Source: an uncultured Phycisphaeraceae bacterium (GTDB lineage: Bacteria; Planctomycetota; Phycisphaerae; Phycisphaerales; UBA1924). From it: a stretch of 64,000 nt of DNA. The notes beneath the pieces were generated by a model. That model made no database searches. It saw only the letters and a list, made by a program, of their open reading frames with translations, and was not told the origin of the DNA. Positions within the stretch are counted from its first letter, which is position 1; every line of letters begins with the position of its first letter. Location of the stretch: positions 44,291-108,290 of the forward strand of contig CAZTQN010000004.1 in NCBI GenBank assembly GCA_964615765.1, written 5' to 3'. Position numbers and translations under genes: made by a program. Below are positions 1,728 to 54,449 of the stretch, piece after piece.

Positions 1728-1940
1728 CGGGCGACTCCGGATATCGGGATACGCAAGAGTGCAGTCGAAAAAGGCTGTCGCGACACGGATATTCGTGGAC
1801 GCTCTTGCGGCCCGTGGTATGCTGCGCGACTCGCGCGCGCCGGTTCTCTGGCCGCCCGCGGGGCGCTGGTTTCCGGTCGTCCGGCCGACCGCAGGCGCGG
1901 GGTGGTGAGGGAAGCCCGGCCTCGTTGGGAGCACGAAAAC

Positions 1941-4900
1941 ATGCGTCGAGTTCGCGCGTCGGTGGTGGGCGGCCTCGCGGCGGTCCTGGTCAGCATCGCG
2001 GGTCAGGCGGCGAGCGCACAGACGTCGACGCCGCTGTCGACCGCGTTCACCTATCAGGGCCAGGTCCGCGTCGGGACCGGGTTGATCAACGGGACCGTGG
2101 ACCTCGAGTTCCGGCTCTTCGATTCCGCGTTCGGCGGGCTGCAGATCGGCCCGACGCTGTCGACCTCGAACACCGTCGTCGTCAACGGGCGATTCACCAC
2201 CAGCCTGGACTTCGGCCCCGGCGCCTTCAACGGCGACGGGCGCTGGCTGCAGATCGCCGTCCGCAACCCCGCGGGCGTCGGCTCGTTCGTCACGCTCGCG
2301 CCGCGCCAGGGCATCCTCGCCGCCCCGTACGCGCTGTACGCCCTCAACGCGACCCCCGGCCCCCAGGGCCCGCAGGGCGAGCCCGGCCCGCAAGGCCCGG
2401 CCGGCCCCGCCGGTGCGGATGGCGCCCCGGGCGCGCAGGGTCCCACCGGTCCGGCCGGTCCCGCTGGTGCGCAAGGCCCGGCTGGTCCGGCTGGCCCCGC
2501 CGGCACTGATGGTGCTCCGGGTGCGCAGGGCCCTGCCGGTCCGGCTGGACCTGCCGGTCCGCAGGGCCCGGCTGGCCCCGCCGGCGCTGACGGCGCTCCG
2601 GGCGCACAAGGCCCCGCCGGTCCCGCTGGTCCGCAGGGTCCGGCTGGCGCCGACGGCGCTTTGGGTGCACAAGGCCCCGCCGGTCCCGCCGGTCCGGCTG
2701 GCCCCGCTGGCGCTGACGGCGCTCCGGGCGCACAAGGCCCCGCTGGTCCCGATGGTCCGCAGGGTCCGGCTGGCCCCGCTGGCGCTGACGGCGCTCCGGG
2801 TCCGCAGGGTCCCGCTGGTCCGGCTGGTCCGCAGGGCGAAGCCGGTCCGCAGGGGCCGCAGGGTCTGCCGGGGATTCCGGGCCCGGCCGGTGCGGATGGC
2901 GCGCCCGGTGCGCAAGGGCCCCAGGGTCCGCAGGGCCCGGCCGGTGCGAACGGCAACTCCGCCGCCCGCTATGTCGTCGGGCCTTTGCTCGACGTCGGCG
3001 TGACGCACACGAGCATTCAGGCGGCGATCGCGGCCGCCGTCGGTGATGGGTTCGGCAACGCCGGCCCGCAGACGGTCATCCTCGTTCGTCCCGGCACGTA
3101 CAACGAGAACGTCTCTCTCGTCGCCGGCATTCACGTGCAGTCGTCGGTCGTTGATCGTTCCTTCGCCGCGACCGTGAACGGGCAGGTCTCGTTCACCGCC
3201 GGCGGCGTCACGTCGTGGAACGGCGTCGACATCAACGGCGGCTCCGGCGCCAGCGGCCTGAACTTCGGCGGGGCCGCGTTCCAGCAACTGTTCCTCAACA
3301 ACACGTTCGTCTACGGCAACAACGCCCCGGCGCTCGACATGAGCAACACCGGCGCCGGCTCCAACATCAGCGTCACCGCCGGCAACTTCCGCGCCACCAC
3401 CGGCACCGTCACGCCCGTCAACGTCACCGCCGGCACGCTGCTGGCGCAGGACACCACCTTCCGCCAGTTCGGAACTTCGTTCGACAACACCGCGATCTCC
3501 GTCGGCGCCGCCGGGCGCGTGTTCCTCAACAACGCCGACATCTTCGGCGTGGTGGCGCACGGCGGGGGCGACTCGTCCATCTCCGGGAGCGTGATCCGCA
3601 GCAACGCTCTGCCCCCGGTCGTCGCCAGCGGCGCGGGCTCGCTCGTGCTGGGCGACACCGGCATCCAGACCGGCACGCCGGGCGCGCTGATCGTCGACTC
3701 CGGCTCGGGCAGCGTCTTCTACACGCAGCTCACCTGGTCTCTGCCGTCGCAGTCGATCCCGGCGACGGCGGTCCTGCTGCCCGGCAGCGGCCCGACGGGC
3801 CCGGCTGGTCCGCAGGGCCCGCAGGGCGTGGCCGGTCCGGCTGGACCGGCCGGTCCGCAGGGCGAAGCGGGTCCCGCCGGCCCGGCGGGCGCCGACGGCG
3901 CGCCGGGGCCGCAGGGTTTGCCGGGTGTCGCTGGTCCCGCGGGTCCGGCTGGCCCGCAGGGCGAGGCCGGTCCGCAGGGGCCGCAGGGTCTGCAAGGGAT
4001 TCAGGGCCCGGCTGGTCCGGCCGGCGCGGATGGCGCGCCGGGTGCGCAGGGTCCGGCTGGTCCCGTTGGCCCGCAGGGTCTGCAGGGTCTGCAAGGCCCT
4101 GCGGGTCCCGCTGGTCCGCAGGGTGAACCGGGTCCGGCTGGTCCTGCTGGTCCGGCCGGCGCTGATGGCGCGCCGGGTGCGCAGGGTCCGGCCGGCGCTG
4201 ATGGCGCGCCGGGTGCGCAGGGTCCGGCCGGCGCTGATGGTGCACCGGGCGCGCAGGGTCCTGCTGGTCCCGCCGGTCCGGCTGGCCCGCAGGGCGAAGC
4301 GGGTCCGCAGGGACCGCAGGGTCTGCAAGGGCTTCAGGGCCCGGCTGGTCCGGCCGGTCCGCAAGGCGAGGCCGGTCCGCAGGGGCCGCAGGGTCTGCAA
4401 GGGATTCAGGGACCCGCTGGTCCGGCCGGCGCCGATGGCGCACCGGGTGCGCAGGGTCCCGCTGGCCCCGCCGGTCCGCAGGGGCTGCAAGGTCTTCAGG
4501 GACCGGCCGGGGCGGATGGCGCGCCGGGGGCGCAAGGTCCGCAGGGGCCTCAGGGCCCGGCGGGTCTGAACAACGTCACCTGGCAGGGCACGTGGAGCGC
4601 TGCGACGACGTACGCCGTGAATGACGCGGTCTTCTATCTCGGATCGAGCTACCGCTCGCTGGTCGCGGGCAACGTCAACGCGCAGCCGGACGCTTCGCCG
4701 GCTTCGTGGGCCCTGTTCGCCGCGGGCGGCGGGTCGGGCAACGCGACGCTGACGGCGGGCGGTCTGCTCGCGAGCACCGCCAACTCGACCATCGGCTACA
4801 CCTTCGGCAATACCAACAACGGCAACGGCAGCGGCGTCAACACACGCTCCAACGGCCTGTGGGGTCGCATCGGGAGCGGAACCTCCGGGAACCTGCCGGT

Positions 4901-5876
4901 CGGGACGGCCGTCCCGTCCGGCGTCGGCCTGTCCAACACCAACTTCGCCATCGGCACCCTCGGCACCGCGACGGGCAACAGCGTCGGCGTCGTCGGGAGC
5001 GTGGGCACTGCCGGCGCGGTCGGGGTCTGGGGTCACAACGACAACACCGCGGGCAGCACCGGGTGGAACGTCGGCGTGATCGGCACGTCCGCCGGCACCG
5101 GCAACGCCGCCACCGGCGTCTTCGGGCAAGCCAACCGCGGCGTCTCGGGCTCTTCGGGCCTGGCCGCCAACGGCAGCAACCCGACGCAGGCCAACCGCCT
5201 GCCGGGCGGCGGCGTGTACGGCGCAACCACCAACACCAACGGCAACGCCGGCTTCTTCCTCGGGCGCGTCGTGATCGAGAACACCTTCGCCGCCGGCGCC
5301 CCGACCAACGACCAGGGCGCGGGCAGCCCCGACCCGTTCATCGTCTGGACCAACAGCGGGGCCTCCGGCTTCAACCGCTCCGGCGCGCTGTTCACCCCGT
5401 CGGACCGCAACTCCAAGTCCGGCTTCACCCCGGTCGACGGCGTCGACGTGCTCAACACGCTCGTCAACACGCCCGTCACCCGCTGGCACTACAAGGGCGA
5501 TGACACCACCTGGTACATGGGCCCGATGGCGCAGGACTTCAAGGCCGCGTTCAACCTCGGCGACAAGGACACCGTCATTCACGGCGTGAACGCCGACGGC
5601 GTCGCGCTCGCCGCGATCCAGGGTCTCAACACCAAGCTCGAAGCCGCGCTCAAGCAGCGTGACCAGACCATCGCCGCGCAGCAGCAGACGCTGGCTTCGA
5701 TGGAAGCCCGCATCGCGAAGCTGGAGTCCGCGTCGTCCTCGGGCGGCACGGTGCTGATCCAGCGGGCCGGCATCGGGCTGGGCGTGCTCGGGCTGCCGCT
5801 GCTGGGCATCGCGCTGTGGCGCCGCCGCGGCGGCAAGCGTGGGGAGCAGACCGGCACGAACGGGGGTGCGGCGTGA
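1941..5876 (+). CDS. Secreted collagen-like / tail-fibre-like surface protein with C-terminal Peptidase_S74-type intramolecular chaperone domain and hydrophobic Arg-rich anchor
   Basis: ATG 1941 is preceded by GGGAGC. The signal peptide is [27 protein letters not shown]. An FTYQG...RWLQIAVR N-terminal domain is followed by two long G-X-Y tracts flanking an Asn/Gly/Thr-rich beta-helix-like segment. Next come [24 protein letters not shown] (CBM5/12-like) and a Gly/Asn/Thr fibre region. The S74 pattern is SDRNSK...TRWHYK...YMGPMAQDF...[19 protein letters not shown] coiled coil is followed by [24 protein letters not shown]. Confidence 0.85.
2358..2954 (+). repeat. Collagen-like G-X-Y tract 1 (66 uninterrupted triplets) inside the 1941..5876 CDS
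   Basis: Translation runs [27 protein letters not shown]... to ...[13 protein letters not shown] with Gly at every third residue. The DNA is highly self-similar GGN-CCG/GCN units. Confidence 0.9.
3789..4565 (+). repeat. Collagen-like G-X-Y tract 2 (86 uninterrupted triplets) inside the 1941..5876 CDS
   Basis: Translation runs [19 protein letters not shown]... to ...[13 protein letters not shown] with Gly at every third residue. Recurring blocks are [21 protein letters not shown] and [12 protein letters not shown]. Confidence 0.9.
4149..4256 (+). repeat. Three tandem 36-bp units ([12 protein letters not shown] x3); first two copies are nucleotide-identical
   Basis: 4149-4184 and 4185-4220 are both ggtccggccggcgctgatggcgcgccgggtgcgcag. 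4221-4256 differs at three synonymous third positions. Confidence 0.9.
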
Positions 5877-6295
5877 AGACCCCGCACCTTCTTCCGGCAC
5901 GGCGCGGCGGGCTGATCCGCCGCGCCGCGATGATCGCGCCCGTGCTCGCCCTCGCCGGCGGCGCGGGCGCGCAGACGACCATCCCCTGGTCGACCATCGA
6001 CTCCGGCGGCGGGACCTCCGTCGCCGGGGCGCTCGAGATCACCGGCACGATCGGCCAGCCCGACGCCGGCGAGAGTTCGGGCGCGGGCCTGGCGCTGCAG
6101 GGCGGCTACTGGGCCGTCGACCGGCGCTGCCCGGCGGACGTCAACGACGACGGCGTCGTGACCACGCAGGACCTGTTCGACTTCGTCGCGTTCTACTTCG
6201 GGACCGAAGTGGCCCTCGCCGACATCAACAACGACCAGGTCGTGTCCACGCAGGACATCTTCGAGTTCCTCGCGGCGTGGTTCACGCCGTGTTGA
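5873..6295 (+). CDS. Small secreted protein with two C-terminal dockerin-like repeats ending in Cys
   Basis: GTG 5873 overlaps the upstream stop as GTGA (5873-5876). The signal-like N-terminus is [33 protein letters not shown]. It is followed by [42 protein letters not shown]. The C-terminus is [50 protein letters not shown] then stop. ATG 5930 is an alternative start. Confidence 0.75.
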
Positions 6296-9176: not shown

Positions 9177-9509
9177 ATGGCGATCCGGATCAAAGCGCGG
9201 AGCGGGGAATCGGCGGAGCAGATGCTGCGGCGCTTCAAGAAGCTCTGCGAAAAGGAAGGCCTGGTCAAGGACATCAAGCGGAAAGAGTACTACGAGAAGC
9301 CCTCCGAGCGGGCCCGCCGCACCGTGCGCAAGGCCATCGGTCGGCGCCTCCGCGAGGCCATGGGCCCCATCGCCCCCAAGGGCAAGGGCGGCAAGGGCGG
9401 CCCCGGCGCTGAACGCCGTGGCGGCGGCGGCGGTGGTGGTGGTGGCGGCGGCTTCGGGGGCGGGTTCGGTGGTGGTGGCGGCGGCGGATTCGGCGGCGGC
9501 GGGTACTGA
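9177..9509 (+). CDS. rpsU: 30S ribosomal protein bS21 with Gly/Phe-rich C-terminal extension
   Basis: AGAGG lies 7 nt upstream of ATG 9177. MAIRIKARSGESAEQMLRRFKKLCEKEGLVKDIKRKEYYEKPSERARR is a canonical bS21 core. The tail is KGKGGKGGPGAERRGGGGGGGGGGGFGGGFGGGGGGGFGGGGY. Confidence 0.9.
   Translation: MAIRIKARSGESAEQMLRRFKKLCEKEGLVKDIKRKEYYEKPSERARRTVRKAIGRRLREAMGPIAPKGKGGKGGPGAERRGGGGGGGGGGGFGGGFGGGGGGGFGGGGY
9420..9506 (+). repeat. GGN/TTC trinucleotide tract encoding the poly-Gly/Phe tail of bS21
   Basis: The sequence ggcggcggcggtggtggtggtggcggcggcttcgggggcgggttcggtggtggtggcggcggcggattcggcggcggcgggtac lies in frame with rpsU. Confidence 0.85.
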
Positions 9510-9568
9510 TCCCGGCTTGACCGCCAGACCGGTCCCCACCGCGTCGCCGGTGAACAAATCAGGAACAC

Positions 9569-9611
9569 ACATGAGCGTGCGGCTGCCCCAGGGAAGGCCG
9601 CACGCTCATGT
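9569..9611 (+). terminator. Perfect 15-bp stem-loop downstream of rpsU (terminator-like, no U-tract)
   Basis: acatgagcgtgcggc (9569-9583) pairs perfectly with gccgcacgctcatgt (9597-9611) across a 13-nt loop. No T-run follows, so termination is plausible but unproven. Confidence 0.45.
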
Positions 9612-9853
9612 CACGCGCGCTGGCCCCGGCTTTGGGTTTGCCCCGGGTCCGCAGCGATTGCTGAATCGGCCGCTCGATCGCCGACACTGAGTGCCAACAA
9701 TCGGCCCCTCGCCGCGCGTGTCTCACACGCGGCATCGAAGGCCGCGCTGTGGTAGTCTGACGACCCCGCGCGGGCCGGCTCTGCCGGCGAGCGGCTGTCA
9801 CAACTTCCCGCCCCGCCCCGCGGTGCGGAGAACCCGTTTTCGGAGGACGGACC

Positions 9854-12703
<2,850 letters not shown>

Positions 12704-15849: not shown

Positions 15850-17079
15850 TCACGCCGCGCCCGGCGCCGGGCCCAGCGTTCGCGTCACGATCACGCTCAT
15901 CGGCGCGATCACGTACTTTGCGCGGCAGCGCACGCCCACCAGCCGGTTGATCGACGACCCCGCCCGCTCCGCCGCCCGCGCGATCAGTTCGCCCGTCCGC
16001 GGATACGCCGGGTCGGCCCCGAGCAGTTCCGGACCCAGCGGCTCGATGTCCGTCAGGTCGTACATGTACGCCGGGTCGTCGTTCGAGACCGGCTGCATCG
16101 GGTGCCCGGTCGACGCGTCGAAGCACTGCATCTTCAGCGACTGCCGGAACGTCGCGCTCTCGGCCAGCGTCTTGTCCATCAGGCAGTCGATCAGCAGCGT
16201 CTCCGTCGGGATCAGGCAGTTGAACGCGATCTGGTTGAACCAGTTGCGGTCTTCCATGTACCGGGGGTTTTCGTACGACGGCATCCCGGTGAACACGATC
16301 GTCGACGCCGCGGCGTGCCCCACCGGGCCCGCCTTCAGCACCACCCACCCGCGGTGCCGATCGATCAGATATTCCAGGTCGTCCGCCGTCGCCGTGGACA
16401 GATCGGGCTCGAGCCGGAACTTGTCCGCCATGAACGAGCGCATCAGGGCCGCGTCCATGTCGGGCGAGCCGTCGTCGTTGGTCGGGGCTTCGAGGTAAAA
16501 CAGGCGGCTGCGATGCCCGGCCCGGATCCGCGTCACGTTGCGCAGGCACTGGTACGACGCCATCGAGACGCGGTCGGCCCGCCCCTGGCGCGACGGCGCG
16601 AAGATGATCCCGCGGATCTGCGTCTCCACCCGCGCGCCCAGCAGCGCGCACTGGGCCCGGTGCGCGTCCCGGCGCAGGTCCTCCGTCCGCGCTTCCATCT
16701 CCCCCCGGTCCCACGTCGCGGCCAGGAGCGCCAGCGTCGGCCGATCGCGTGCGTGCGTCTCGATGGCCCGGTCCAACCGCTCGATCGCTTTGCGGAGCGG
16801 GTTGAGGTCGTCCGCCGGCACACCGTTCGGGCCCGCCGCACTGGCTTCCACAAACAGGCTCAGCCCCCGCGCCCCGGGCATGACGGCGAGCCCCGCCGAC
16901 GCCTGCGGCTGGCAGGCGATCGTCGACACCTGCCAGGCCAGTTGCCGGTTGACCCCGAGCCGATTTCCGATCGACGCGCCAGATCGTGGGTCCAGCCCGA
17001 GTATCTGCAGAGCGCGAAGCACCTCATACCGCAGTGTGGTGTACGCCTCATCAAGCTCGGATAGGGCAAAGTCGGGCAT
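15850..17079 (-). CDS. Hypothetical protein, 409 aa, no recognisable family
   Basis: The start is ATG 17079. The amino-acid composition is balanced (Y, F, N, I, K, M, C all present), unlike the overlapping Arg/Gly/Pro-rich ORFs 15698..16714 and 15793..17064. I recognise no motif. The N-terminal ~60 aa (TLRYEVLRALQILGLDPRSGASIGNRLGVNRQLAWQVS) could be a winged helix. Confidence 0.65.
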   Translation of the reverse strand: MPDFALSELDEAYTTLRYEVLRALQILGLDPRSGASIGNRLGVNRQLAWQVSTIACQPQASAGLAVMPGARGLSLFVEASAAGPNGVPADDLNPLRKAIERLDRAIETHARDRPTLALLAATWDRGEMEARTEDLRRDAHRAQCALLGARVETQIRGIIFAPSRQGRADRVSMASYQCLRNVTRIRAGHRSRLFYLEAPTNDDGSPDMDAALMRSFMADKFRLEPDLSTATADDLEYLIDRHRGWVVLKAGPVGHAAASTIVFTGMPSYENPRYMEDRNWFNQIAFNCLIPTETLLIDCLMDKTLAESATFRQSLKMQCFDASTGHPMQPVSNDDPAYMYDLTDIEPLGPELLGADPAYPRTGELIARAAERAGSSINRLVGVRCRAKYVIAPMSVIVTRTLGPAPGAA

Positions 17080-17236
17080 GCGGTCGACCCGGGCGGGACG
17101 CGCCAGTTATAGCCGGCGGCCGGAAATGGTTGAATCGGCCCGCCCCGACTTTTCGATCAGTACTGATGGCATTCGTGACGGATTCAAGTATACTCCAGCC
17201 GGCCGGAATCACCAGGAATCCCATCAGGAGGCACCG

Positions 17237-18784
17237 ATGACGAGCAGGATCACCGGAGCGCGACACCGCCGAATGTGCTTTGCCTGCGGGGCGGGATTCC
17301 TGCTGGTTGCCGCTGCGCAACCCCTTTCCGCACAGACGTTTATCCGCCCCATTGTCACGGAACTTGAGTCGTCTCCCACGGTCCTTCAGGCTGAGCCGCT
17401 GATTACGGTGAGCGCCCTGCTGCAGAGCGAAATCTCGTGCAGCCCGAACGGGCTGTACTGGGGCTGCGAGGTCTTCACAGAGGTTGGCACTCCTCCGGCG
17501 GTCACCACCGCCGATGCCGCCATCAGCGGCACTCGGGCCGGGGTGTCCTGGTATGTCGCCCGCGGCCAGAACATCCCCGGGCTTGGCGTGGCCACGGACA
17601 CCGGCGGGATCGATGAGCGTGTGCTCGTGAACAACGCGGGCGATGTCAGCCTGTCGTGCAACCTGACGGGCCCGACCTCGACCGACGAAGCGATTATCCG
17701 CTGGACCCGCGCGACGGACACATACCAGTTCACGGCCCGAGAGGGCTCGACGATCGGTGTGTTTCCGGGTGAGACATACGGCCTGAACATGGTGCAGCGC
17801 GCGTTCCTCAACGACGGACGCATCGCGTTTTTCAACTCCAGCACGAACGGCGTGCTCCCGAGTTCAGCGGACGACTTTCTCTTCCTGAGCGGCAACCCGC
17901 CGACCGTGGTCGCGCAGAACGGCGGGGCGACGCCCGTGGGCCAGTCGTTCACCCCGCCGTCGGTGATCACGGCGCTCGAGGACGAGTTCGCCGTGAACGC
18001 CACGGGAACGCGGTCGATCTACACCGCGCTGGTCGGGGTCGGGGCGGCGGCGCGCGAGGTCGCGGTCGTCGACGGGAACGTCGTGCTCGAGATCGGGCAG
18101 AACCTGCCCGGGATCACCGGCACGTTCACGCGGATCGACACCATCAGCGATGTGCGGATGAGCGCGAGCGGGCGGTGGGCGGCCCACGGGCGCGCGTCGG
18201 ACGGCGTGACCACCCCGGGCCCGAACTACCTCGTCGTCGACGGACAGGTGCTCTTCAGCGGCGACGTGACCATGCCCGGCGGGTTCGCCGGCGAGGCGGT
18301 GATCTCCGTCATCGACCTCGGGTTCACGACGCAGGGCGATCTGTGGTACGGCGTGGTCACCAGCTTCGGCCGCTCGGTGGTGATGGTCATCCCGGTCGCG
18401 CCCGGCAGCCCCCCCATCACCGCGTTCGAGACCGGCTCCGCCCTCGACCTCAACAACAACGGCGACCCGTTCGACGATCAGGCGACCGTCACGGGGATCT
18501 TCTCCGCGGCCCTCGCGGACGACGGCACGCTGTACCTGATCACCCGCAACTCGGCCCCGGTGTCGCAGTTCCAGTTCGACGTCATCGGGTGGACCACCGT
18601 CGATCTGCCGGTCGTGTGCCGGGCCGACATCAACGGGCAAGGCGGGATCACCGTCCAGGACATCTTCGACTTCCTCGCGGCGTGGTTCGCCGGCGGGGCG
18701 AGCGGCGACTTCAACGGGCAGGGCGGGATCACGGTGCAGGACATCTTCGATTTCCTCGCCGCGTGGTTCGCCGGCTGCCCGTGA
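17237..18784 (+). CDS. Secreted protein with two C-terminal dockerin-like repeats ending ...WFAGCP (GC-type dockerin)
   Basis: AGGAGG (17225-17230) lies upstream of ATG 17237. The signal peptide is MTSRITGARHRRMCFACGAGFLLVAAAQPLSAQ. The C-terminus is CRADINGQGGITVQDIFDFLAAWFAGGASGDFNGQGGITVQDIFDFLAAWFAGCP. The part of track ORF 16538..18784 upstream of 17237 is antisense to the neighbouring gene. Confidence 0.8.
   Translation: MTSRITGARHRRMCFACGAGFLLVAAAQPLSAQTFIRPIVTELESSPTVLQAEPLITVSALLQSEISCSPNGLYWGCEVFTEVGTPPAVTTADAAISGTRAGVSWYVARGQNIPGLGVATDTGGIDERVLVNNAGDVSLSCNLTGPTSTDEAIIRWTRATDTYQFTAREGSTIGVFPGETYGLNMVQRAFLNDGRIAFFNSSTNGVLPSSADDFLFLSGNPPTVVAQNGGATPVGQSFTPPSVITALEDEFAVNATGTRSIYTALVGVGAAAREVAVVDGNVVLEIGQNLPGITGTFTRIDTISDVRMSASGRWAAHGRASDGVTTPGPNYLVVDGQVLFSGDVTMPGGFAGEAVISVIDLGFTTQGDLWYGVVTSFGRSVVMVIPVAPGSPPITAFETGSALDLNNNGDPFDDQATVTGIFSAALADDGTLYLITRNSAPVSQFQFDVIGWTTVDLPVVCRADINGQGGITVQDIFDFLAAWFAGGASGDFNGQGGITVQDIFDFLAAWFAGCP
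18632..18775 (+). repeat. Two 63-bp dockerin-repeat coding units (18632-18694, 18713-18775)
   Basis: The units differ at 5 of 63 positions (caa/cag, acc/acg, gtc/gtg, gac/gat, gcg/gcc). All differences are third-position and synonymous, so both encode NGQGGITVQDIFDFLAAWFAG. Confidence 0.9.
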
Positions 18785-18831: not shown

Positions 18832-20514
18832 ATGCGCATGGGAAGACTGTTGCGAGCGGGTGTGGCGGCGGCGTGTATGTTCGGGGCGGTCGCCCCGGTC
18901 ATGGCGCAGACCACCTACACCATGACGGGAACCGCCGGGTTCATGCAGGACCTGGACGCCAACGACGGGTTCGTCTATCAGACGGAGTTCGGCGCGGGCC
19001 AGACATGGACGGCGGAGGTCGTGCTGCCGGCGCAGGCGTCGCTGCTGTTCGCCGCTAACACGCAGAGCCAGGGGGGCTCGCGCACGGACTACATCCCGAT
19101 CTCGCTGACGAACCTGACGATCACGCGGGCGGGCGGCCCGCCGATCGTGCTGGCGACGTCCGCCGCCCCGCTCACAGGGACGCTCCGCTTCTGGCACCGC
19201 GCCAGCGCTGGCCAGCACTTCGCGGAGTTCCTGTTCACCATCGGCGTCTCTCCGACGCGGACGACGATCACCTTCTCGCTCAACGCGCAGATCAACGACG
19301 ACGCGGCGTACGACCTGCTGTTCGTGCAAGGCACGCCCAGCGCCAACACGCCCGACGCCAACTACTTCCCCGCGTTCAACACGGCCGGTCTGCGCGACGG
19401 GCAGTACCGCACGACCTCCCTCGCGATCGACGCGTTCGTGCCGGTCTTCCCGGGTCGCGGGCGGTACAACGGCAACATGGAGACCTTCGTCAACGCGGCT
19501 GACCCGAACCCCACGCCGGGCGCCTGCTGCTTCCCCAACGGCACGTGCCGCCTGAGCAACGCCGACGGGTGCAACACCGCGGCCGGGTTCACTTGGTTCA
19601 GCGGGCAGACGTGCAGCCCGTCGCCGTGCCCCCCGCCGACGGGTCGGTGCTGCGGCCTCGCGGCCGGGTGCACGATCACCCCGCAGGCAAACTGCGACCC
19701 GGACATCGGCCAGTGGACCTTCGGGGCAACGTGCTCGCCGAACGCCTGCCCGGTGCTCGGGGCGTGCTGCCAGTTCGACGGGACGTGCCTGCTGATCACC
19801 GAGGTGGACTGCGGCGGCGACCCGTGGGACGCCGGCGCGACGTGCGCGCCCAACAACTGCCCCGCGCCGACGGGCGCCTGCTGCGACTCCGCCCAGGCGT
19901 GCACGATCGTCTCGCTGAGCGCGTGCGGCACGCTCGGCGGCACGTACCTCGGCGACAACGTCACCTGCGGCCCGACCACCTGCACTCCTGGCGCCTGCTG
20001 CGACCCGACGACGCTTGACTGCACGAGCCTGACGGAGCAGGAGTGCTTCGACAACGGGCTGGAGTTCCGCGGCGCGGGCGTCGCGTGCACGCCCGACCCG
20101 TGCTCGAACACGCCGCAGCCCGTTACCGTCACCCGCGCCGGCGCGGGCGACGGGACCGTCACCAGCAACCCCGCCGGCATCACCTGCGGCTCGGTGTGCA
20201 CGTTCAACTTCCCGGGCGCGAGCGTGGTCGTGCTGACGGCGACGCCGACCGCCACGTCCGCGTTCGCGGGCTGGAGCGGCGACTGCTCCGGCACCGGCGA
20301 CTGCACGCTGACGATGACCGCGGCCCGTAGCGTGACCGCGACGTTCACCTGCCGCGCTGACTTCAACAACGCCGGCGGGCTCACGGTTCAGGACATCTTC
20401 GACTTCCTCGCCGCCTACTTCGCGGGCCTGCCCGCGGCGGACTTCAACGGCGCCGGCGGGCTGACGGTGCAGGACATCTTCGACTATCTGGCCGCCTACT
20501 TCGCGGGGTGCTGA
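18832..20514 (+). CDS. Secreted protein: N-terminal domain, five six-Cys repeats, InlB-B-repeat-like domain, two dockerin-like repeats ending ...YFAGC
   Basis: GGAGAAGG lies upstream of ATG 18832. The signal peptide is MRMGRLLRAGVAAACMFGAVAPVMAQ. The Cys-rich tandem repeats span 19519-20103. VTVTRAGAGDGTVTSNPAGITCGSVCTFNFPGASVVVLTATPTATSAFAGWSGDCSGTGDCTLTM matches the divergent InlB B-repeat pattern. The C-terminus is CRADFNNAGGLTVQDIFDFLAAYFAGLPAADFNGAGGLTVQDIFDYLAAYFAGC then stop. Confidence 0.8.
   Translation: MRMGRLLRAGVAAACMFGAVAPVMAQTTYTMTGTAGFMQDLDANDGFVYQTEFGAGQTWTAEVVLPAQASLLFAANTQSQGGSRTDYIPISLTNLTITRAGGPPIVLATSAAPLTGTLRFWHRASAGQHFAEFLFTIGVSPTRTTITFSLNAQINDDAAYDLLFVQGTPSANTPDANYFPAFNTAGLRDGQYRTTSLAIDAFVPVFPGRGRYNGNMETFVNAADPNPTPGACCFPNGTCRLSNADGCNTAAGFTWFSGQTCSPSPCPPPTGRCCGLAAGCTITPQANCDPDIGQWTFGATCSPNACPVLGACCQFDGTCLLITEVDCGGDPWDAGATCAPNNCPAPTGACCDSAQACTIVSLSACGTLGGTYLGDNVTCGPTTCTPGACCDPTTLDCTSLTEQECFDNGLEFRGAGVACTPDPCSNTPQPVTVTRAGAGDGTVTSNPAGITCGSVCTFNFPGASVVVLTATPTATSAFAGWSGDCSGTGDCTLTMTAARSVTATFTCRADFNNAGGLTVQDIFDFLAAYFAGLPAADFNGAGGLTVQDIFDYLAAYFAGC
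19519..20103 (+). repeat. Five tandem 38-41 aa six-cysteine repeats (G-x-CC-x5-6-C-x7-C-x11-14-C-x4-C)
   Basis: The five units are GACCFPNGTCRLSNADGCNTAAGFTWFSGQTCSPSPC, GRCCGLAAGCTITPQANCDPDIGQWTFGATCSPNAC, GACCQFDGTCLLITEVDCGGDPWDAGATCAPNNC, GACCDSAQACTIVSLSACGTLGGTYLGDNVTCGPTTC and GACCDPTTLDCTSLTEQECFDNGLEFRGAGVACTPDPC. Confidence 0.85.
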
Positions 20515-39110: not shown

Positions 39111-39379
39111 CCAGCCGCGGGGCCCGTCGACGTTCGACGCCGAGAGAACCAACCGCCCGGTTCTCGGGGCCTGCTGCGCGTCCGAGAACCGCCGAAAGGC
39201 ACCCAGTTTCCTCGAAGTTCATAGTTCGCGCCCGGTCTCTTCAAGGATTGCGCAAATTTGCTCCCTTGATCGAGCCGCCGCGCGGTACCCGTGCCATAAT
39301 CACTTCGCCCTCCAGGCACCGCGTGCGTCCGCCGTGGCCGCTCGCGACATTCAGTTCTCTTGCAGACAGGACGTCCTGC

Positions 39380-39952
39380 ATGCGTCGTCGTTCCGTCGTC
39401 GTCGCGGTCGCTGCGCTCGCCGCCGCCGCCTCCTCCACCCTCGCTCAAACCATCGATTTCGACCTCGGGAATATCACCCCGGGCGTGCGGAACCTCACGG
39501 GCACCACCGTCGGGGCCAGCAATGACATTGACACATACGCGCCGCTGGGCAACACCACGGTGATCTGGGACCAGGACGTCATCTACCGCTTCGTCACCAG
39601 CCAGCCCCTCACCTTCTCCTTCACGTCCAACGATCCGGACTCCAGCCCGGACATGGACTTCTTCCTGCTCACCAGCACGGCGACCACGCTCAACGCCAGC
39701 AACCTGCGCCAGGCGACGCTCGCATCGCAGCAAACTTCGCTCTGGTTCATCGACAGCCAGCCCGCCTTCACGCTCCCGGCCGGCACCTACTTCTTCGTCA
39801 TCGACGCGTGGCGTGGCAACCCGACGACCGTTGGCACGCCCGCAACCGGCCGCGCCGGCGCGTACAACGTCTCGCTCAGTCTCGTTCCCAGCCCGTCCGC
39901 CGCGGCCCTCATGGGTCTGGCCGGCCTGGTCGCGACGCGCCGTCGGCGCTGA
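39380..39952 (+). CDS. Secreted protein with PEP-CTERM-like C-terminal sorting signal
   Basis: The start is ATG 39380. The signal peptide is MRRRSVVVAVAALAAAASSTLAQ. The C-terminus VPSPSAAALMGLAGLVATRRRR has a P-x-P motif, a TM helix and an Arg cluster. Confidence 0.75.
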   Translation: MRRRSVVVAVAALAAAASSTLAQTIDFDLGNITPGVRNLTGTTVGASNDIDTYAPLGNTTVIWDQDVIYRFVTSQPLTFSFTSNDPDSSPDMDFFLLTSTATTLNASNLRQATLASQQTSLWFIDSQPAFTLPAGTYFFVIDAWRGNPTTVGTPATGRAGAYNVSLSLVPSPSAAALMGLAGLVATRRRR

Positions 39953-42789: not shown

Positions 42790-45189
42790 ATGTCGATGAA
42801 AGCGGTTTCGTCCGTGCCCGTCGGGTCGCCACGATTTGCCCCGCGCGTGCTGAGCGTGGCGGCCGCGCTCGTGCTCTGCGCCGGCGCCGCCCGCGCCGTC
42901 CCGACCACCACGCCGCTGCTCACCCCCGGCTTCGATGACACCGCCGGCGTCGCCGCCGCCGCCTTCGCCGGGGCCTACGCCACCACCGACACCTTCGAAG
43001 ACTCCGTCGAGATCCGCGACGCCCGACTCAACCTCACACGCACCATCACGCGGGCCGAGATCCAGGCCCTCGCCCCATGGCTCGCGCTCGACGGCGGGCC
43101 CGACGGCCCCTCCGCCGTCGCCCTGTCCGCCTCCGGACGACTCGCCTTCATCCTCGTGCACGACGACACCGTGCCCGCCGACGGCCTGCCCTCCGACGCC
43201 GTGCTCCGCCTCGACCTCGGCACCGGCGCCCTCGCCCTCTTCGCTCGCCTCGACGCCTTCGACCGCGGCGACATCGCCCCGCACCTCGCCCTCGCCCACC
43301 ACCGCGGCCTGCTCTGGGTCGGCACCAACACCGCCGGCATCCGCGTCTATTCCGCCGGCGCCAACACCACCGCCGGCACACTGCTGACCACCTGGACTTT
43401 GCCCGCCGCCGGCGCGGGCCAGCCAGTCACCGGTATCACCATCGACCGCGACGCGAGCACGCTCTTCGCCTCAACGCCCACGGCCGTCTACCGCGCCAAC
43501 ATCCCCACCTCCACCGCCACCGCGCCGACGTGGACCACGCTCGTCTCCGGCTCGTCCGACATCCGGGCCATCGCCTGGGCCGAGCACTTCGGCGGGACGT
43601 CCAACCGCGGGCTCTATCTCCTCCGCGGCACGCCCACCCCCCCCGGCGCCCGCATCGACGTCGTCTCCTACTTCGACGCCTTCTCGACCACGCCCGTCAC
43701 GCCGACGCTGTACACCACGTCGACCACGCCGCAGTTCGACCTCGCCGCGACGGCGGAGGGCGCGCTGCTCGTCGGCGCTGACGAGGACGCGCTGATCATC
43801 CGCGACACCGCCGACACGCGCCTGACCTTCGACGCCTGGCTCACCGACGAGTTCACGCAGGTCGCGACCTTCGCGCGCCGCCTCATCTCGCCCGACGGCG
43901 AGCCCGCCGGCTGGGTCATCGACGCCGACACCGACCTCACCATCAACCGCTTCCACCCCGCCACGCCCGACGCCGCGGGGTGGACGGTCCTGATGCTGCT
44001 GATGGCCGACCATCTCTTCGACGACGCGCAGGCCAAGGCGCAGGTTACCACCGTGCTCACGCGCTATGCGGGCTTGTCGACCGACAACATCCGCCCCTCG
44101 CGCACGACCGACGGCATCTACCGCCACTGGATCGACCCGCTCACGGGTCAGGCCAAGCCGGGGTGGGATCCGGAGTTCGCGACGCTGAGCACGATGAAGA
44201 TCGTCGCCGCCGCGGCTCGGGCCGCCGCGATGTACCCGGACGACCCCGCCATCGTCCGGGCCGCGCACCGCATCATCTTCCGCACGCGCAACTACGACCC
44301 GTACATCCAGACCTTCGGCTCGCGGGCCATGGCCTTCAAGGGCGCCGCCGCCGGCGGGCCCGACTTCGGCTCCTTCGCCGCGCCGTTCCACGAGGGCGTC
44401 ATCTTCGTCGAACAAGCCGCGACCTATGGCGGGTCCTCGAGCCAATCCGCCTTCACCGCCTGGCTCAACCGGGCCGCGCTCCCGAGCGCCACGCTCCTCA
44501 CCGGCCAGCCCGTCACCTCGACAGCCAACGGCCTGTTCGAAGCCTCGTTCATCAGCCTTTACCCCGCGCTGCTCACGCCGTCATACCGCGCCAGCACCGC
44601 CTGGCAGGCCCAGGTGAACAACCTCCGCTGGTCGCACGCCGCGTGGACGGACGACAACGCCCCGCGCTACTTCACCGTCTTCTCCGCCGGCACGACCAAG
44701 CCCGAGTGGGGCGGCTACAACGCCGACTCGCTCTCCAACCGCCCGGGCAACGTCACCACGTTCACCTCGCTGCTCGCGATGTCGGCCCTGGGCGACGCTT
44801 CGCCCGCCGTCAGCGCGTACCACGCCTACCGCAAGGGCGCCCGCCAGACCTTCCGCACCGGCGCGAGCATCCTGTACCGTCGCAGCGACATCGACCGCGC
44901 CTACCTGCCCAACTCGGCGGGCCTGCCGGACGTCGCGCTCGGCGCGCTGGGCATCGCCGACCTGATCCAGCCCGGCTCGATCGACGCCGTGCTCGCCCGC
45001 GCGTACCCGACCATCGAGCAGTGCCCGACCGACGTCAACGCCGACGGCGCGATCACCGTCGAGGACCTCTACCGCCACGTCGCGGCGCCGACCGACCTCA
45101 ACGGCGACGGCGCCACCAACGCGTCCGACACCCGCTGCCTCGCGGCCTGGCTGCGCCGCAACGAATCAACCGACACGCGCACACGCTGA
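42790..45189 (+). CDS. Large secreted protein (799 aa) of unknown function with C-terminal dockerin/EF-hand-like repeats (not GC-terminated)
   Basis: The start is ATG 42790. The signal peptide is VLSVAAALVLCAGAARA. The N-terminal half has propeller-like strands (GLLWVGTNTAGIRVYSAG, TLFASTPTAVYRANIP). The C-terminal half is helix-rich and possibly a glycosidase-like alpha-toroid, but this is unverified. The C-terminus is CPTDVNADGAITVEDLY....DLNGDGATNASDTRCLAAWL. Confidence 0.7.
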   Translation: MSMKAVSSVPVGSPRFAPRVLSVAAALVLCAGAARAVPTTTPLLTPGFDDTAGVAAAAFAGAYATTDTFEDSVEIRDARLNLTRTITRAEIQALAPWLALDGGPDGPSAVALSASGRLAFILVHDDTVPADGLPSDAVLRLDLGTGALALFARLDAFDRGDIAPHLALAHHRGLLWVGTNTAGIRVYSAGANTTAGTLLTTWTLPAAGAGQPVTGITIDRDASTLFASTPTAVYRANIPTSTATAPTWTTLVSGSSDIRAIAWAEHFGGTSNRGLYLLRGTPTPPGARIDVVSYFDAFSTTPVTPTLYTTSTTPQFDLAATAEGALLVGADEDALIIRDTADTRLTFDAWLTDEFTQVATFARRLISPDGEPAGWVIDADTDLTINRFHPATPDAAGWTVLMLLMADHLFDDAQAKAQVTTVLTRYAGLSTDNIRPSRTTDGIYRHWIDPLTGQAKPGWDPEFATLSTMKIVAAAARAAAMYPDDPAIVRAAHRIIFRTRNYDPYIQTFGSRAMAFKGAAAGGPDFGSFAAPFHEGVIFVEQAATYGGSSSQSAFTAWLNRAALPSATLLTGQPVTSTANGLFEASFISLYPALLTPSYRASTAWQAQVNNLRWSHAAWTDDNAPRYFTVFSAGTTKPEWGGYNADSLSNRPGNVTTFTSLLAMSALGDASPAVSAYHAYRKGARQTFRTGASILYRRSDIDRAYLPNSAGLPDVALGALGIADLIQPGSIDAVLARAYPTIEQCPTDVNADGAITVEDLYRHVAAPTDLNGDGATNASDTRCLAAWLRRNESTDTRTR

Positions 45190-45199
45190 TCGCCTCGCC

Positions 45200-45931
45200 T
45201 CAAAAGCAACCGCCGAAGTACGACGCCAGGAAGTCAAACACGTCCTGCACGCTCAGCTCGCCCGAGCGGTTGTAGTCCGCGGGGCAGAAGCGGCACGACG
45301 TCGGCGAGCACGCGCCGGCGAGCACGGACAGCTCGAGCGTCTCGCAGGTCGCGATGTCAACGACCGTGCACGCGCCGGTCGTCGGGTTGCAGCACCCAGC
45401 CGACGCCCCGCCGTCGACCTGCACCGCCGGCGGGAACGTCAAGTCACTCGCGATCCAGCCGTAGATGGTCCGAAACGAGTGCGCGACGCTGATCGGCTGG
45501 TCGCTCGTGTGCCAGCGCACGCGCCCCGGGGACACGCCCGACAGGTGCACGTAGTACGTGCCCGGCTGCAGCACCGTCGGCGTGCTCGGCGTCGCGACGT
45601 ACGCGCTCACCGCCTGCACGCTCGGAATGTTCAGGTCCGCCACCGTCACGCCCGCAGCAATCCCGTCCGCCACGGCGATTCGCCCGCGCACCGGCGTCGC
45701 GGCGTCGCTGCTCAGCCCCAGCGTCACGCTCGTCAGCGTCCGCGTCCGCGTCACCGTGAACTGGACCGCGATTTCCTGCAGCGGGAAGTCGGCCGTCACC
45801 GTCGAGTTGAACGCCGGATGAAACGTCCCCGTCGGCATCGTCGTGAAGATCACCTCGCCCGCCGCCGCTCGACCGACCACCGCCGCCGCGGCAATACCGA
45901 GCAGCGCGAGCATCTTCGAAGCCGTGATCAT
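45200..45931 (-). CDS. Secreted protein with one six-Cys repeat and one GC-type dockerin-like repeat (ends ...YFGGCF)
   Basis: AAGGA lies upstream of ATG 45931. The signal peptide is MITASKMLALLGIAAAAVVGRAAA. The six-Cys unit is GCCNPTTGACTVVDIATCETLELSVLAGACSPTSC and the dockerin repeat is CPADYNRSGELSVQDVFDFLASYFGGCF. Confidence 0.75.
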   Translation of the reverse strand: MITASKMLALLGIAAAAVVGRAAAGEVIFTTMPTGTFHPAFNSTVTADFPLQEIAVQFTVTRTRTLTSVTLGLSSDAATPVRGRIAVADGIAAGVTVADLNIPSVQAVSAYVATPSTPTVLQPGTYYVHLSGVSPGRVRWHTSDQPISVAHSFRTIYGWIASDLTFPPAVQVDGGASAGCCNPTTGACTVVDIATCETLELSVLAGACSPTSCRFCPADYNRSGELSVQDVFDFLASYFGGCF

Positions 45932-46096: not shown

Positions 46097-47050
46097 TCAG
46101 GCGCATCCGCCGAAGTACGCGCTCAGGTAGTCGAAGATGTCCTGCACGGTGATCCCGCCGGCGCCGTTGAAGTCGGCCCGCGGATCGCCGCTGAAGTACG
46201 CCGTCAGGAAGTCGAAGATGTCCTGCACCGTGAGCGAGCCGGAGTTGTTGAAGTCCGGGCGGCAGTCGTTGAAGCGGAAGCCCATGTCATCCCAGAAAAT
46301 CGTCCCCTGGCTGAACGCCAGGCTCTGCGGCGGGCCGAACCGCAGCGGGAGCACGCTCACCTTCGCGTCCGGGTTCTGCGGCGGGAGGGCCCACAGCTGC
46401 CCCGTGCCCGGGTTGATGTACAGCGCTTCGTTCTGCTGCACCGTGCGCTCGAACCGAACCCACTGATCGTTCGTGTGGATCCCCGGGCCGTTCGGCGTCG
46501 TCACAACCACAATCCCCGGAACGTTCGTCGCCACGTTCGGGTCGTTCGGGTTGATGTCCAGCCACTCGGGACCGACATAGGTCGAGTCGTTCACCGTGCG
46601 CCGGAACTCCAGCTTCAGCCCCGCACGCTGCCCCGCGAAGCCCGACAGCCCCTGGCTGACAAACGGCGTCGCCGACGGGATGTAGAAATAGCCCCACACC
46701 GTGATCGACGGCTCCCCGATCCCGAAGCGGTACCCCGCGTTGTTCACCGGGCTCCCCAGCGTCCCGCGGTCCAGCGGCGAGTTGCTCGAGAAGCCCGCGA
46801 AGTCCGAGCCCATCGGCAACTCGATGCTGCGCGTCCCCGTGCGAGCCACGGCGGCCGGCGTGAGCCCGTCACCGATCTCGCGGTACGTCGCCGAGTTGAA
46901 GCGGTCCCAGCCCGAGGGATACGACGCGTTGAACGGGTCCGGCGTTTCAAAGCTCGTGTTCTGCAGTTGCTGGAACGGCTGCGCCTGCGCGACGCCGCCC
47001 GCCGTCACACACGCGCCGATCGCCAGCGCCTTCATCATCCCGGTCTTCAT
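46097..47050 (-). CDS. Secreted jelly-roll/CBM-like protein with two GC-type dockerin-like repeats (ends ...YFGGCA)
   Basis: AGGAG lies upstream of ATG 47050. The signal peptide is MKTGMMKALAIGACVTAGGVAQAQ. The QNTSFETPDPFN...WDRF...GYFYIP...LKLEFRR pattern is reminiscent of CBM4/9/22-type beta-sandwiches. The C-terminus is CRPDFNNSGSLTVQDIFDFLTAYFSGDPRADFNGAGGITVQDIFDYLSAYFGGCA. Confidence 0.75.
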   Translation of the reverse strand: MKTGMMKALAIGACVTAGGVAQAQPFQQLQNTSFETPDPFNASYPSGWDRFNSATYREIGDGLTPAAVARTGTRSIELPMGSDFAGFSSNSPLDRGTLGSPVNNAGYRFGIGEPSITVWGYFYIPSATPFVSQGLSGFAGQRAGLKLEFRRTVNDSTYVGPEWLDINPNDPNVATNVPGIVVVTTPNGPGIHTNDQWVRFERTVQQNEALYINPGTGQLWALPPQNPDAKVSVLPLRFGPPQSLAFSQGTIFWDDMGFRFNDCRPDFNNSGSLTVQDIFDFLTAYFSGDPRADFNGAGGITVQDIFDYLSAYFGGCA

Positions 47051-47292: not shown

Positions 47293-48153
47293 CTACTTCA
47301 GCCCCTCCGCCGCCACCCCCTTCACAAACGTCCGCTGCGTCAGCAGGAACAGCAGCAGCAGCGGCGACACCATCAGCGTGCTCGCCGCCATCAGCAGGTT
47401 CCACGGCGTGTTGCCCGCCTGCCCCTGGTACAGCTGCAGCCCCAGCGCCAGCGTGTACTGGTCCCGGTGCGTCAGAAAAATCAGCGGCCCCACAAAGTCG
47501 TTCCACACGTAGATGAAGTGGAACAGCGCCACCACCGCGAGCGCCGGCTTGCTGAGCGGCAGGATCATCCGCCAGAAAATCCCCCAGTGCGAGCACCCGT
47601 CGATCCGGGCCGCCTCGTCCAGGTCCCGCGGAATCGTGCGGAAAAACTGCCTCAGCATGAAGATGTTGAACGCCCCGCCGAACCACGCCGGCACCCAGAG
47701 CGGGCGCAGCGTCCCGATCCACCCCAGCTCACGGAACACCATGTACAGCGGCACCATGATCACCGGGAACGGGATCATCATCGTCGCCAATACCAGCGCG
47801 AACACCGTCCCTCGCCCGCGCCACTCGATCCGCGACAACCCGTACGCCACCACCGCGCTCGATAGCGTCATCCCGATCACGCCCAGGCTCGCGATGATCA
47901 GCGTGTTCCGCAGGTACAGCGGGAACTCGATCGTGGGGTCGTTCCACACGCTCGAGTAGTTCTCCCGGGCCACGCTCAGCGTCGATCCCGCCGGGTCGGG
48001 CAACAGCCGGATCCGCTGCGACGCGGCTTGGTTCTCGGGCTTCACGGACGTCGACACCATCCACACCAGCGGCGCAATGAACAGCACCCCGATGCTCGCC
48101 AGCACCGCGTACACCGCCGCCCGCCCAAACGTCTCGCTTCCCGACCGCCGCAC
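47293..48153 (-). CDS. Carbohydrate ABC transporter permease (MalG/CUT1-like)
   Basis: It has six hydrophobic segments and an EAA-loop motif, DLDEAARIDGCSHWGIFWRMILPLSKPAL. Confidence 0.88.
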   Translation of the reverse strand: MRRSGSETFGRAAVYAVLASIGVLFIAPLVWMVSTSVKPENQAASQRIRLLPDPAGSTLSVARENYSSVWNDPTIEFPLYLRNTLIIASLGVIGMTLSSAVVAYGLSRIEWRGRGTVFALVLATMMIPFPVIMVPLYMVFRELGWIGTLRPLWVPAWFGGAFNIFMLRQFFRTIPRDLDEAARIDGCSHWGIFWRMILPLSKPALAVVALFHFIYVWNDFVGPLIFLTHRDQYTLALGLQLYQGQAGNTPWNLLMAASTLMVSPLLLLFLLTQRTFVKGVAAEGLK

Positions 48154-48196
48154 CGAGTCCTCCGCTCCTTCCTGTTCCCCCCCTCGGCCCTCGGCC

Positions 48197-49090
48197 CTAA
48201 ACCCTGTAATAGACGAGCCGCCGACTCGCCCAGAACATCACCCCCGTCAGCCCCATCGTCACCAGCAGCAGCACCCACGCCATCGCGCTCGCGTACCCCA
48301 TCTTCAGGTACACGAACCCATTGTCATAGAGGTACATCGTGTAGAACAGCCCGCCGGGGTTCTGCCCGTCCTTGGTGCGGAACATGACGTACGGCGCCGC
48401 GAACACCTGCACGGTGTTGATCGCCAGCGTGATCACCGTGAACAGAATCGCCGGCGAGATCATCGGCACCGTGACGTTCACAAACCGGCGCACCGGCCCC
48501 ATTCCGTCCAGTTCCGCCGCCTCATACAACTGGCTCGGCACGTCCTGCAACGCCGCGACGTACACCACCACGCTCTGCCCCACGCCCCACAGGCTCATCA
48601 CCACCAGCGACGGCACCGCCCACGCCGGGTCCAGCAGCCAGTTCGGCCCCGTCACGCCCAGCGCCGCGAGCGCCTTATTCACCAGCCCGTACTCGGCGTT
48701 GAACAGCCACGACCACACCATCGCCGCGGCGACCAGCGGCACCAGCGTCGGGATGAACACCATCGCCTGCATCGCCCGCCCGAACCGCCCGCCCCCCACC
48801 CCGCTCCCCGCAAACACCGCCGCCAGAATCAGCCCGACGAGCGTCGACAGCGGGATCGAGACCGCCGCGAACACCGCCGTGTTCTTCACCGCCCGGATGA
48901 GTTCCGGATCCTCCAGCATCCGCCGGTAGTTCTCGAGCCCAACCCACAAGGGCGGCTCGAGCATCGAGTAATCCGTGAACGAGAAATACAAACTCAGCAC
49001 CATCGGCACGAGCATGAACGCCGTCGCGCCGATCAGCCACGGGCTGACCCACAAGAGGCCGATCGCCGTCGCCCGCGCCGACTTCTTCAC
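48197..49090 (-). CDS. Carbohydrate ABC transporter permease (MalF/CUT1-like)
   Basis: GTG 49090 overlaps the SBP stop (GTGA). The EAA-loop motif is QLYEAAELDGMGPVRRFVNVTVPMISP. The protein is polytopic. Confidence 0.88.
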   Translation of the reverse strand: MKKSARATAIGLLWVSPWLIGATAFMLVPMVLSLYFSFTDYSMLEPPLWVGLENYRRMLEDPELIRAVKNTAVFAAVSIPLSTLVGLILAAVFAGSGVGGGRFGRAMQAMVFIPTLVPLVAAAMVWSWLFNAEYGLVNKALAALGVTGPNWLLDPAWAVPSLVVMSLWGVGQSVVVYVAALQDVPSQLYEAAELDGMGPVRRFVNVTVPMISPAILFTVITLAINTVQVFAAPYVMFRTKDGQNPGGLFYTMYLYDNGFVYLKMGYASAMAWVLLLVTMGLTGVMFWASRRLVYYRV

Positions 49091-50478: not shown

Positions 50479-50515
50479 CGCGTCAATCTATCCGCCAGCC
50501 ACACGCCTGGCCCGT

Positions 50516-50872: not shown

Positions 50873-50899
50873 ATCCGTCAGCGCGGCCGCCCACAGTGA

Positions 50900-54447: not shown

Positions 54448-54449
54448 AG

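Follow-up and report, generated by a model that had tools for sequence, protein, structure and literature searches.

GC-type dockerin-like tails of Phycisphaerales: a catalogued family whose modules may be closed by a disulfide bond and docked on a surface receptor

A stretch of 64,000 nucleotides from an uncultured Phycisphaeraceae bacterium (contig CAZTQN010000004.1), referred to here as the window, encodes six secreted proteins (p1–p6) that finish in dockerin-like modules, and in five of them (p1–p5) the module is of the GC type, with a cysteine at or next to the C-terminus. The balance of the evidence tilts towards a view in which the GC-type modules form a dockerin-like family specific to Phycisphaerales that likely holds Sec-exported proteins at the cell surface, each module being closed by a disulfide bond and docked non-covalently on one conserved receptor of the envelope. 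The core finding is already catalogued; added to it here are the argument for the closure of the module and a new lead, a family of neighbouring genes (family X).

A sequence-only reading of the window had placed six such tails in it, and all six are found in their places (Table 1). Each of the six proteins has a signal-peptide-like N-terminus, and a Shine-Dalgarno-like motif lies 5' of the proposed starts of p2, p3, p4 and p5. The same reading had five tails of the GC type ending within 0–1 residues of the stop codon, which is confirmed for p1 (FTPC), p2 (FAGCP), p3 (FAGC), p4 (FGGCF) and p5 (FGGCA). In longer form, and always followed by the stop codon, these tails read ...CPADVNDDG...AAWFTPC in p1, ...CRADINGQGGITVQDIFDFLAAWFAGGASGDFNGQGGITVQDIFDFLAAWFAGCP in p2, ...AAYFAGC in p3, ...CPADYNRSGELSVQDVFDFLASYFGGCF in p4, where there is one repeat, and ...SAYFGGCA in p5.

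The family to which these tails belong is described by the NCBIfam model NF041540 (dockerin_GC, "GC-type dockerin domain-anchored protein"), whose cut-off of 29 bits is exceeded by p1, p2, p3 and p5 (scores in Table 1). Like these four window tails, those of the model are C-terminal and end in Gly-Cys; it is a catalogue entry only, and it misses both the single-repeat module of p4 and the canonical-like tail of p6. The Pfam family Dockerin_1 (PF00404), with a gathering score of 22.9 bits, is matched below threshold by p1 (18.7 bits) and p6 (17.1 bits, E = 0.006) and gives no match to p2, p3, p4 or p5; of 89 representatives of the GC-type family, 4 reach the gathering score. A literature search returned no paper that names the family or deals with the GC-type dockerin, and no description of a partner or a structure.

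The size and host range of the family were assessed with a profile search and a genome scan. A profile of 24 modules, searched against 1.84 billion representatives, matches 13,436 clusters formed at 50% identity when the limit is E ≤ 1e-3, and 4,164 when it is E ≤ 1e-10, and a scan of one genome per species yields more than 541 confirmed module stretches. The best 78 loci of these stretches, which comprise 1.24 Mb and 19,064 open reading frames (ORFs), are the basis of all the locus statistics given below. They come from metagenome-assembled genomes of Phycisphaerales/Phycisphaeraceae, except for one 2.7-kb contig labelled Verrucomicrobiota, and a single genome supplies up to 22 of the 78 loci and 36 modules. 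The 1.24 Mb contain 165 module-bearing ORFs, approximately two per seeded locus, which means that the genes occur in clusters, just as in the window. On sequence grounds, the GC-type tails are members of a catalogued, unpublished family that is essentially all from Phycisphaerales, has dozens of copies per genome and has been massively expanded by paralogy. The earlier statements that such tails had been catalogued in Phycisphaerae, and that no binding partner was known for them, agree with the model matches, the genome scan and the literature search.

The dockerin-like identity first assigned from the repeats agrees with the predicted structure. The AlphaFold2 model of the p2 module has a predicted local distance difference test score (pLDDT) of 96.2 and a predicted template modelling score (pTM) of 0.81, with helices at residues 13–25 and 40–52, and when it is compared with the Protein Data Bank (PDB) by Foldseek, the best eight matches are all dockerins (TM-score 0.5–0.6, root mean square deviation of approximately 3–4 Å). 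The module is confidently modelled as an antiparallel two-helix hairpin that is dockerin-like.

The anatomy of the module is uniform in some parts and variable in others. In both repeats, Asp at loop position 1 (100%), Asn at position 3 (99%) and Asp at position 12 (100%) are conserved, and position 5 is Val in 40–50% of the modules and mostly Ser, Ala or Thr in the rest, with Asp in approximately 13% of the first repeats. In dockerins and EF-hands this position provides the third Ca ligand. The helix VQDIFDFLxAWFAG is nearly invariant: positions 10–17 and 19–23 are approximately 80–100% conserved in both repeats, position 18 is the variable exception, and Phe or Leu together account for approximately 98–100% at position 21. 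The two repeats are joined by a linker of four residues in 145 of 153 modules, with the pattern [DNS]-P-x-A. A cysteine three residues before the first loop, Cys(-3), and another one right after the last helix, Cys(+1), are each present in 97%; the stop codon follows Cys(+1) directly in 66% and within 0–1 residues in approximately 95%, and the motif is C-terminal in all 162 motif-bearing ORFs of the loci. The conservation of the helix argues for one conserved binding partner, because half of the helix must be solvent-exposed and it is nonetheless uniform across thousands of paralogues.

Type I dockerins (PF00404; PDB 2CCL, 1OHZ, 6KGF) share with the GC-type modules the duplicated loop-helix repeats of approximately 22 residues, in which Asp/Asn occupies loop positions 1 and 3 and Asp position 12, the antiparallel two-helix fold that is predicted for the GC type, the C-terminal location on secreted enzymes and binding proteins, and the existence of many paralogues per genome with a uniform module. 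They differ at loop position 5, which is Asp/Asn in type I dockerins and Val, Ser or Ala in the GC type, and the GC tails are further set apart by scores below the Pfam gathering score, by a very aromatic helix (IFDFLxAWF) and by the invariant flanking cysteines.

The two flanking cysteines had been read as the sign of either a disulfide-closed module or a covalent attachment, and it is the former that the data favour. Among the two-repeat modules of the loci, both cysteines are present in 145 and absent from 4, the first alone is present in 1 and the last alone in 1, a co-occurrence with a Fisher probability of 1.2e-6, uncorrected for the kinship of the sequences; both are likewise missing in P0056 and P0059, two fragments from metagenomes. 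This joint loss is supportive rather than conclusive. Internal two-repeat modules, found in 9 cases among 141 representative proteins, retain both cysteines in all 9 and are followed by a Cys-rich repeat and then by a second module, and in P0118, where one module directly adjoins another (...WFAGC-QPL-C-RVDFN...), each of the two has a pair to itself. Since internal modules keep both cysteines, a free C-terminal Cys is not required, which goes against the covalent attachment.

Another way of looking at the cysteines is to consider the geometry of the fold. Dockerins such as PDB 1OHZ and 2CCL consist of two antiparallel helices related by a two-fold pseudo-symmetry, so the end of helix 2 would lie beside the start of loop 1. 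If the flanks are read across this gap, Cys(+1), Cys(-3), x and Ala make four residues ending in Ala, like the real linker, and because of this match a disulfide joining Cys(+1) to Cys(-3) would correspond in topology to the peptide bond that joins residues -4 and -3 of the linker. Taken together, the co-occurrence, the internal and tandem pairs and the geometry of the flanks indicate that the cysteines most likely close the module by a disulfide.

The repeats of p2 have also been considered from the point of view of selection, since the sequence-only reading had held that the duplicated 63-bp units differ only synonymously under strong purifying selection. In p2 this is so: the units at 18632–18694 and 18713–18775 differ in 5 of 63 nucleotides, all at third positions and synonymous, and encode the same 21 residues. 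The chance that five random substitutions would all be synonymous is approximately 3.6e-4, which is why the p2 repeats are regarded, on these codons, as being under purifying selection; the full 23-residue repeat adds one non-synonymous change, I/F at loop position 2. Beyond p2, however, the pattern does not hold. The nucleotide differences in synonymous/non-synonymous codon pairs between repeats are 4/4 in p3, 2/10 in p5 and 0/19 in p1, and the two repeats of the p2 orthologue found in another locus, L083 (49% identity, module kept), are clearly unlike each other. Given that none of these has a synonymous-only pattern, the simplest history would be that the p2 repeats were homogenised in their own lineage and later underwent only synonymous change.

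The proteins that carry the module are diverse. GC-dockerin cargo includes M36, M1, M10-like and M23 peptidases, Ig, PKD and FG-GAP/ASPIC domains, beta-propellers, galactose-binding-like domains, CBM96, beta-helices and a lamin-tail domain, and the majority of the cargo regions have no Pfam domain match. Of the cargo features named in the sequence-only reading, only the InlB B-repeat is confirmed by Pfam, in p3. Cys-rich repeats can be seen in the translations of p3 and p4, with no Pfam family; a jelly roll resembling a carbohydrate-binding module was not confirmed for p5, and searches of PDB sequences with the cargo of p5 and p6 gave no match. The cargo of p2 has no Pfam family match and contains repeats weakly similar to DUF7453. 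The proposal of an assembly that binds or degrades glycans holds only in part: the cargo as a whole is heterogeneous, includes peptidases and for the most part has no known domain. The Cys-rich repeat itself is of approximately 40 residues (GACC..G.C.......C....G....G..C.P.PC), has no Pfam match and often stands directly before the GC module, with a CC doublet at the junction; it occurs in the window at 19500–20200 (p3) and 45290–45400 (p4), as well as in P0116, P0117 and P0187.

Related cargo is also found with a different tail. Because the window encodes two PEP-CTERM-like tails on small secreted proteins, at 39248–39949 (+; ending in ...PSPSAAALMGLAGLVATRRRR) and 54722–55519 (-; ending in ...PAPSAAGVMALGGLVALRRRR), a second C-terminal anchor system exists beside the GC-dockerins, and the loci hold 14 more such tails. 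None of the features of these tails, namely the PEP-like motif, the hydrophobic helix and the Arg-rich end, is present in the GC tails. DUF7453 is followed by a PEP-CTERM tail in locus L084 and by a GC-dockerin tail in a representative protein, and a PPC-like domain is common to a PEP-CTERM protein and to GC-dockerin proteins (39% identity over 107 residues). This choice of anchor on related cargo, together with the analogy to dockerins, supports the idea that the GC-type tail would hold proteins at the cell surface. The "choice-of-anchor R" domain of p4 (NF041539, 35.5 bits) has been counted toward the same role; a search of a large protein set with this region of p4 returned p4 itself as the sole match.

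In the mechanism proposed here, Cys(-3) and the Cys right after the last helix would form a disulfide that stands in for the linker peptide bond on the open side of the pseudo-symmetric module, which would thereby become a closed ring, stable outside the cell. The closure may offset Ca sites that appear weakened because Val, Ser or Ala usually stands at loop position 5, and the near-invariant surface of the helix would dock non-covalently onto one conserved receptor of the envelope. Single-repeat forms such as p4 would pair head-to-tail with a second chain to give the same ring, although a covalent dimer of this kind is a speculation.

Several observations weigh against this proposal. The Foldseek E-values of the 55-residue model are not significant (≥ 0.37), the domain being very small, and position 5, a Ca ligand elsewhere, is degenerate in the GC-type modules. 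The joint losses of the cysteines amount to only about three independent lineages, and a few modules retain one Cys alone. Single-repeat modules with both cysteines (p4, four others from the loci and 12 or more fragments from metagenomes) do not fit a simple bond within the module, nor do the three-repeat modules with both cysteines that also exist. Regarding the receptor, Pfam identifies no cohesin in the approximately 46 proteins of the window, and none was found within 10 kb of the 78 loci (best E 0.38) with a profile of low sensitivity, built from three cohesins of C. thermocellum and checked against the PDB, which is weak for distant cohesins. The earlier remark that nothing cohesin-like is recognisable in the window holds.

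Neither a candidate transferase nor a dedicated processing gene recurs beside the GC-dockerin genes. Thioredoxin-like proteins, present in six loci, were considered as partners and rejected, because their distance is 6 kb or more and their recurrence is for the most part a consequence of gene order common to several genomes. The remaining families that recur nearby are commonplace (DUF1559 pseudopilin-like proteins, transporters of the ATP-binding cassette (ABC) type, solute-binding proteins and histidine kinases).

Instead of a lasting docking domain, the module could be mainly a C-terminal sorting or secretion signal, comparable to PEP-CTERM or to the C-terminal domain of the type IX secretion system, that a machine of the envelope reads and possibly removes. 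Its location speaks for this (C-terminal in more than 90% of the proteins, with the stop 0–1 residues past the Cys in approximately 95%), as do the PEP-CTERM tails that take its place on related cargo of these genomes and the NCBI names "anchored" and "choice-of-anchor". Nevertheless, 9 of the 141 representatives have an internal module with further domains and another module behind it, the confident model is that of a dockerin-like domain with neither a transmembrane helix and basic tail nor a beta-sandwich, no recurrent processing gene adjoins these genes, and family X has no signal peptide or membrane segment; a signal of this kind is for these reasons an unlikely explanation.

The role of the cysteines allows two further interpretations. 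Envelope protein that is rich in cystine and stabilised by disulfides occurs in planctomycetes, and the cysteines of the modules might form intermolecular bonds, so that modules pair or chain with each other or with Cys-rich proteins of the envelope into a cross-linked protein layer. The common single-repeat modules with both cysteines, which on geometric grounds could not close on themselves and as head-to-tail dimers would mimic the ring, fit this interpretation, and so does the frequent direct fusion of modules to Cys-rich repeats, with the CC doublet at the junction; yet the equivalence between flank and linker and the separate pair of each tandem module favour, in the two-repeat form, a bond within the module, which leaves the cross-linked layer improbable to much the same degree as the sorting signal. 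The covalent attachment of the terminal Cys to the envelope, by a thioester, a lipid or something similar, would account for the 97% conservation of Cys(+1), mostly 0–1 residues from the stop, and would suit the absence of a known non-covalent partner. Of all the explanations it is the one with the slightest chance of being right, given that internal modules retain the GC motif together with the partner Cys although the Cys is not terminal there, that the terminal Cys covaries with the N-terminal one, that 1–3 extra residues of any kind are tolerated after it, and that no candidate transferase recurs nearby.

Table 1. Positions of the tailed proteins, of family X and of the intergenic palindrome (window coordinates, except where a locus is named)
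Feature	Position	Strand	Description
p1	5873/5930..6295	+	small secreted protein; GC-type module 6128-6292; NF041540 40.7 bits
family X, window member	15850..17079	-	409 aa, no signal peptide; divergent from p2/p3; HMM E = 1.3e-49
palindrome ATCAGTACTGAT	17156..17167	.	perfect, 12 bp, X-p2 intergenic; TATACT box follows
p2	17237..18784	+	515 aa, signal peptide; GC-type module 18617..18781; NF041540 39.0 bits
p2 module	18617..18781	+	two 23-residue loop-helix repeats, 4-residue linker, Cys -3, Cys +1, Pro, stop
p3	18832..20514	+	560 aa, secreted; Cys-rich repeats, InlB B-repeat (Flg_new_2); GC-type module 20350-20511; NF041540 35.7 bits
p6	42790..45189	+	799 aa, secreted; more canonical dockerin-like tail 45022-45186; no terminal GC; outside NF041540
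p4	45200..45931	-	243 aa, secreted; choice-of-anchor R domain, one Cys-rich repeat; single-repeat GC module 45203-45286
p5	46097..47050	-	317 aa, secreted; GC-type module 46100-46264; NF041540 42.3 bits
family X, other members	L017:5561-6991, L031:7942-9210, L056:7108-8601, and others

Family X was found by clustering the genes around the GC-dockerin loci. Its members are cytoplasmic proteins of approximately 410–480 aa, to which neither Pfam, even at E ≤ 10, nor NCBIfam nor the PDB sequences offer a match; all the orthologues are annotated as "hypothetical". The AlphaFold2 model (pLDDT 89, pTM 0.85) is helical in its N-terminal half and rich in beta structure in its C-terminal half, and a Foldseek search of the PDB gives no real relative (TM-score ≤ 0.27); the modelled fold is apparently novel. 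Of the 28 members in the DNA analysed, 21 lie head-to-head within 600 bp of a GC-dockerin ORF, and three more, the window one included, do so if over-long ORF calls are allowed for. The loci were chosen for their GC-dockerin genes, and the weight of this observation lies in the immediate adjacency, not in mere nearness. The family occurs in at least five Phycisphaerales genomes besides the window's own, its GC-dockerin partners comprise at least seven unrelated cargo families, and L083 keeps the X/p2/p3 arrangement with both GC tails.

The notion that family X regulates the neighbouring GC-dockerin genes is plausible but weakly supported. The 10-bp core of the palindrome ATCAGTACTGAT is kept in the orthologous intergenic region of L083 (5918–5927) and is found nowhere else in the 1.24 Mb, and the palindrome may be an operator. 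Family X matches no helix-turn-helix family, and the paralogous intergenic regions between X and GC-dockerin genes share no operator motif. A more far-reaching picture, in which Phycisphaerales possess their own surface-display system with a receptor that is not a cohesin, a disulfide-circularised and less Ca-dependent GC dockerin, head-to-tail covalent dimers of single-repeat modules and each cargo gene under its own paralogue of the structurally novel family X, is, as a whole, doubtful.

The gene content of the window is that of an ordinary chromosome (DNA polymerase I, H+-pyrophosphatase, MreBCD, RecO), with GH94 and GH1 enzymes, ABC sugar transport and planctomycete-type N-methyl/DUF1559 proteins, and its G+C content is 69.8%. 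Since p3 begins only 48 bp downstream of the end of p2, both probably form one operon. p1 has 140 aa if it starts at GTG 5873, in an overlap of 4 nt with the stop codon of the collagen-like gene that lies upstream, or 121 aa from ATG 5930; the former is probably the start, because the relative P0111 likewise has 140 aa. A protein of 1324 aa encoded at 1902–5876 (+) resembles a phage tail fibre, with long collagen triple-helix repeats and Peptidase_S74 (endosialidase chaperone), and ends in a hydrophobic stretch followed by WRRRGGKR. Adjoining p4 and p5, the region 47296–59926 is a sugar-utilisation cluster with an ABC permease pair, a solute-binding protein, a GH94 phosphorylase, a glucoamylase-like protein, a LacI regulator and GH1.

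Other tails were seen in the course of the survey. In L084, beside an orthologue of family X, two genes (3544–5853 and 9456–11438, both on the minus strand) carry another Gly-Cys tail, with repeats of the form NNGVTEGDYNLFFxxFFDG and then CAF and the stop, which is perhaps a diverged sister form of the GC-type module. The "poly-dockerin" proteins P0123 (609 aa) and P0161 (487 aa) contain 5–7 consecutive dockerin-like modules with Cys inside the loops (DFNLDGAVNCADVC...).

Known systems share some features with the GC-type modules and differ from them in others. Cellulosomal dockerins belong to firmicutes, whereas the host here is a planctomycete of the Gram-negative type, and no cohesin was found in the window or within 10 kb of the 78 loci. 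The only published idea that comes close is the "planctosome" of the Nemodlikiaceae, freshwater Phycisphaerae, for which non-cellulosomal complexes of cohesins and dockerins have been proposed that would keep peptidases and binding domains attached to the outer membrane (Andrei et al., 2019; PMC6461901). GC-dockerin cargo likewise has peptidases (M36, M1, M23) and a lamin-tail domain, but the planctosome rests on recognisable cohesins and dockerins, while near the GC-type genes no cohesin is recognisable and the dockerin is bracketed by cysteines. The PEP-CTERM/exosortase system resembles the GC type in that it gives related cargo of these genomes another kind of C-terminal tail; it differs in that its tail is a short motif with a transmembrane helix and an Arg cluster, and the GC module is a folded, soluble domain of 55 residues.

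Phycisphaerales are common in water, sediment and wastewater. The tail discussed here is carried by dozens of genes in each of their genomes and by 13,436 clusters, and the way in which it works has not been published. If the module is indeed a self-closing dockerin that binds a conserved receptor, it would be the main route by which Phycisphaerales display enzymes and adhesins on their surface, and a small docking tag with a disulfide lock and a reduced dependence on Ca would also serve protein engineering.

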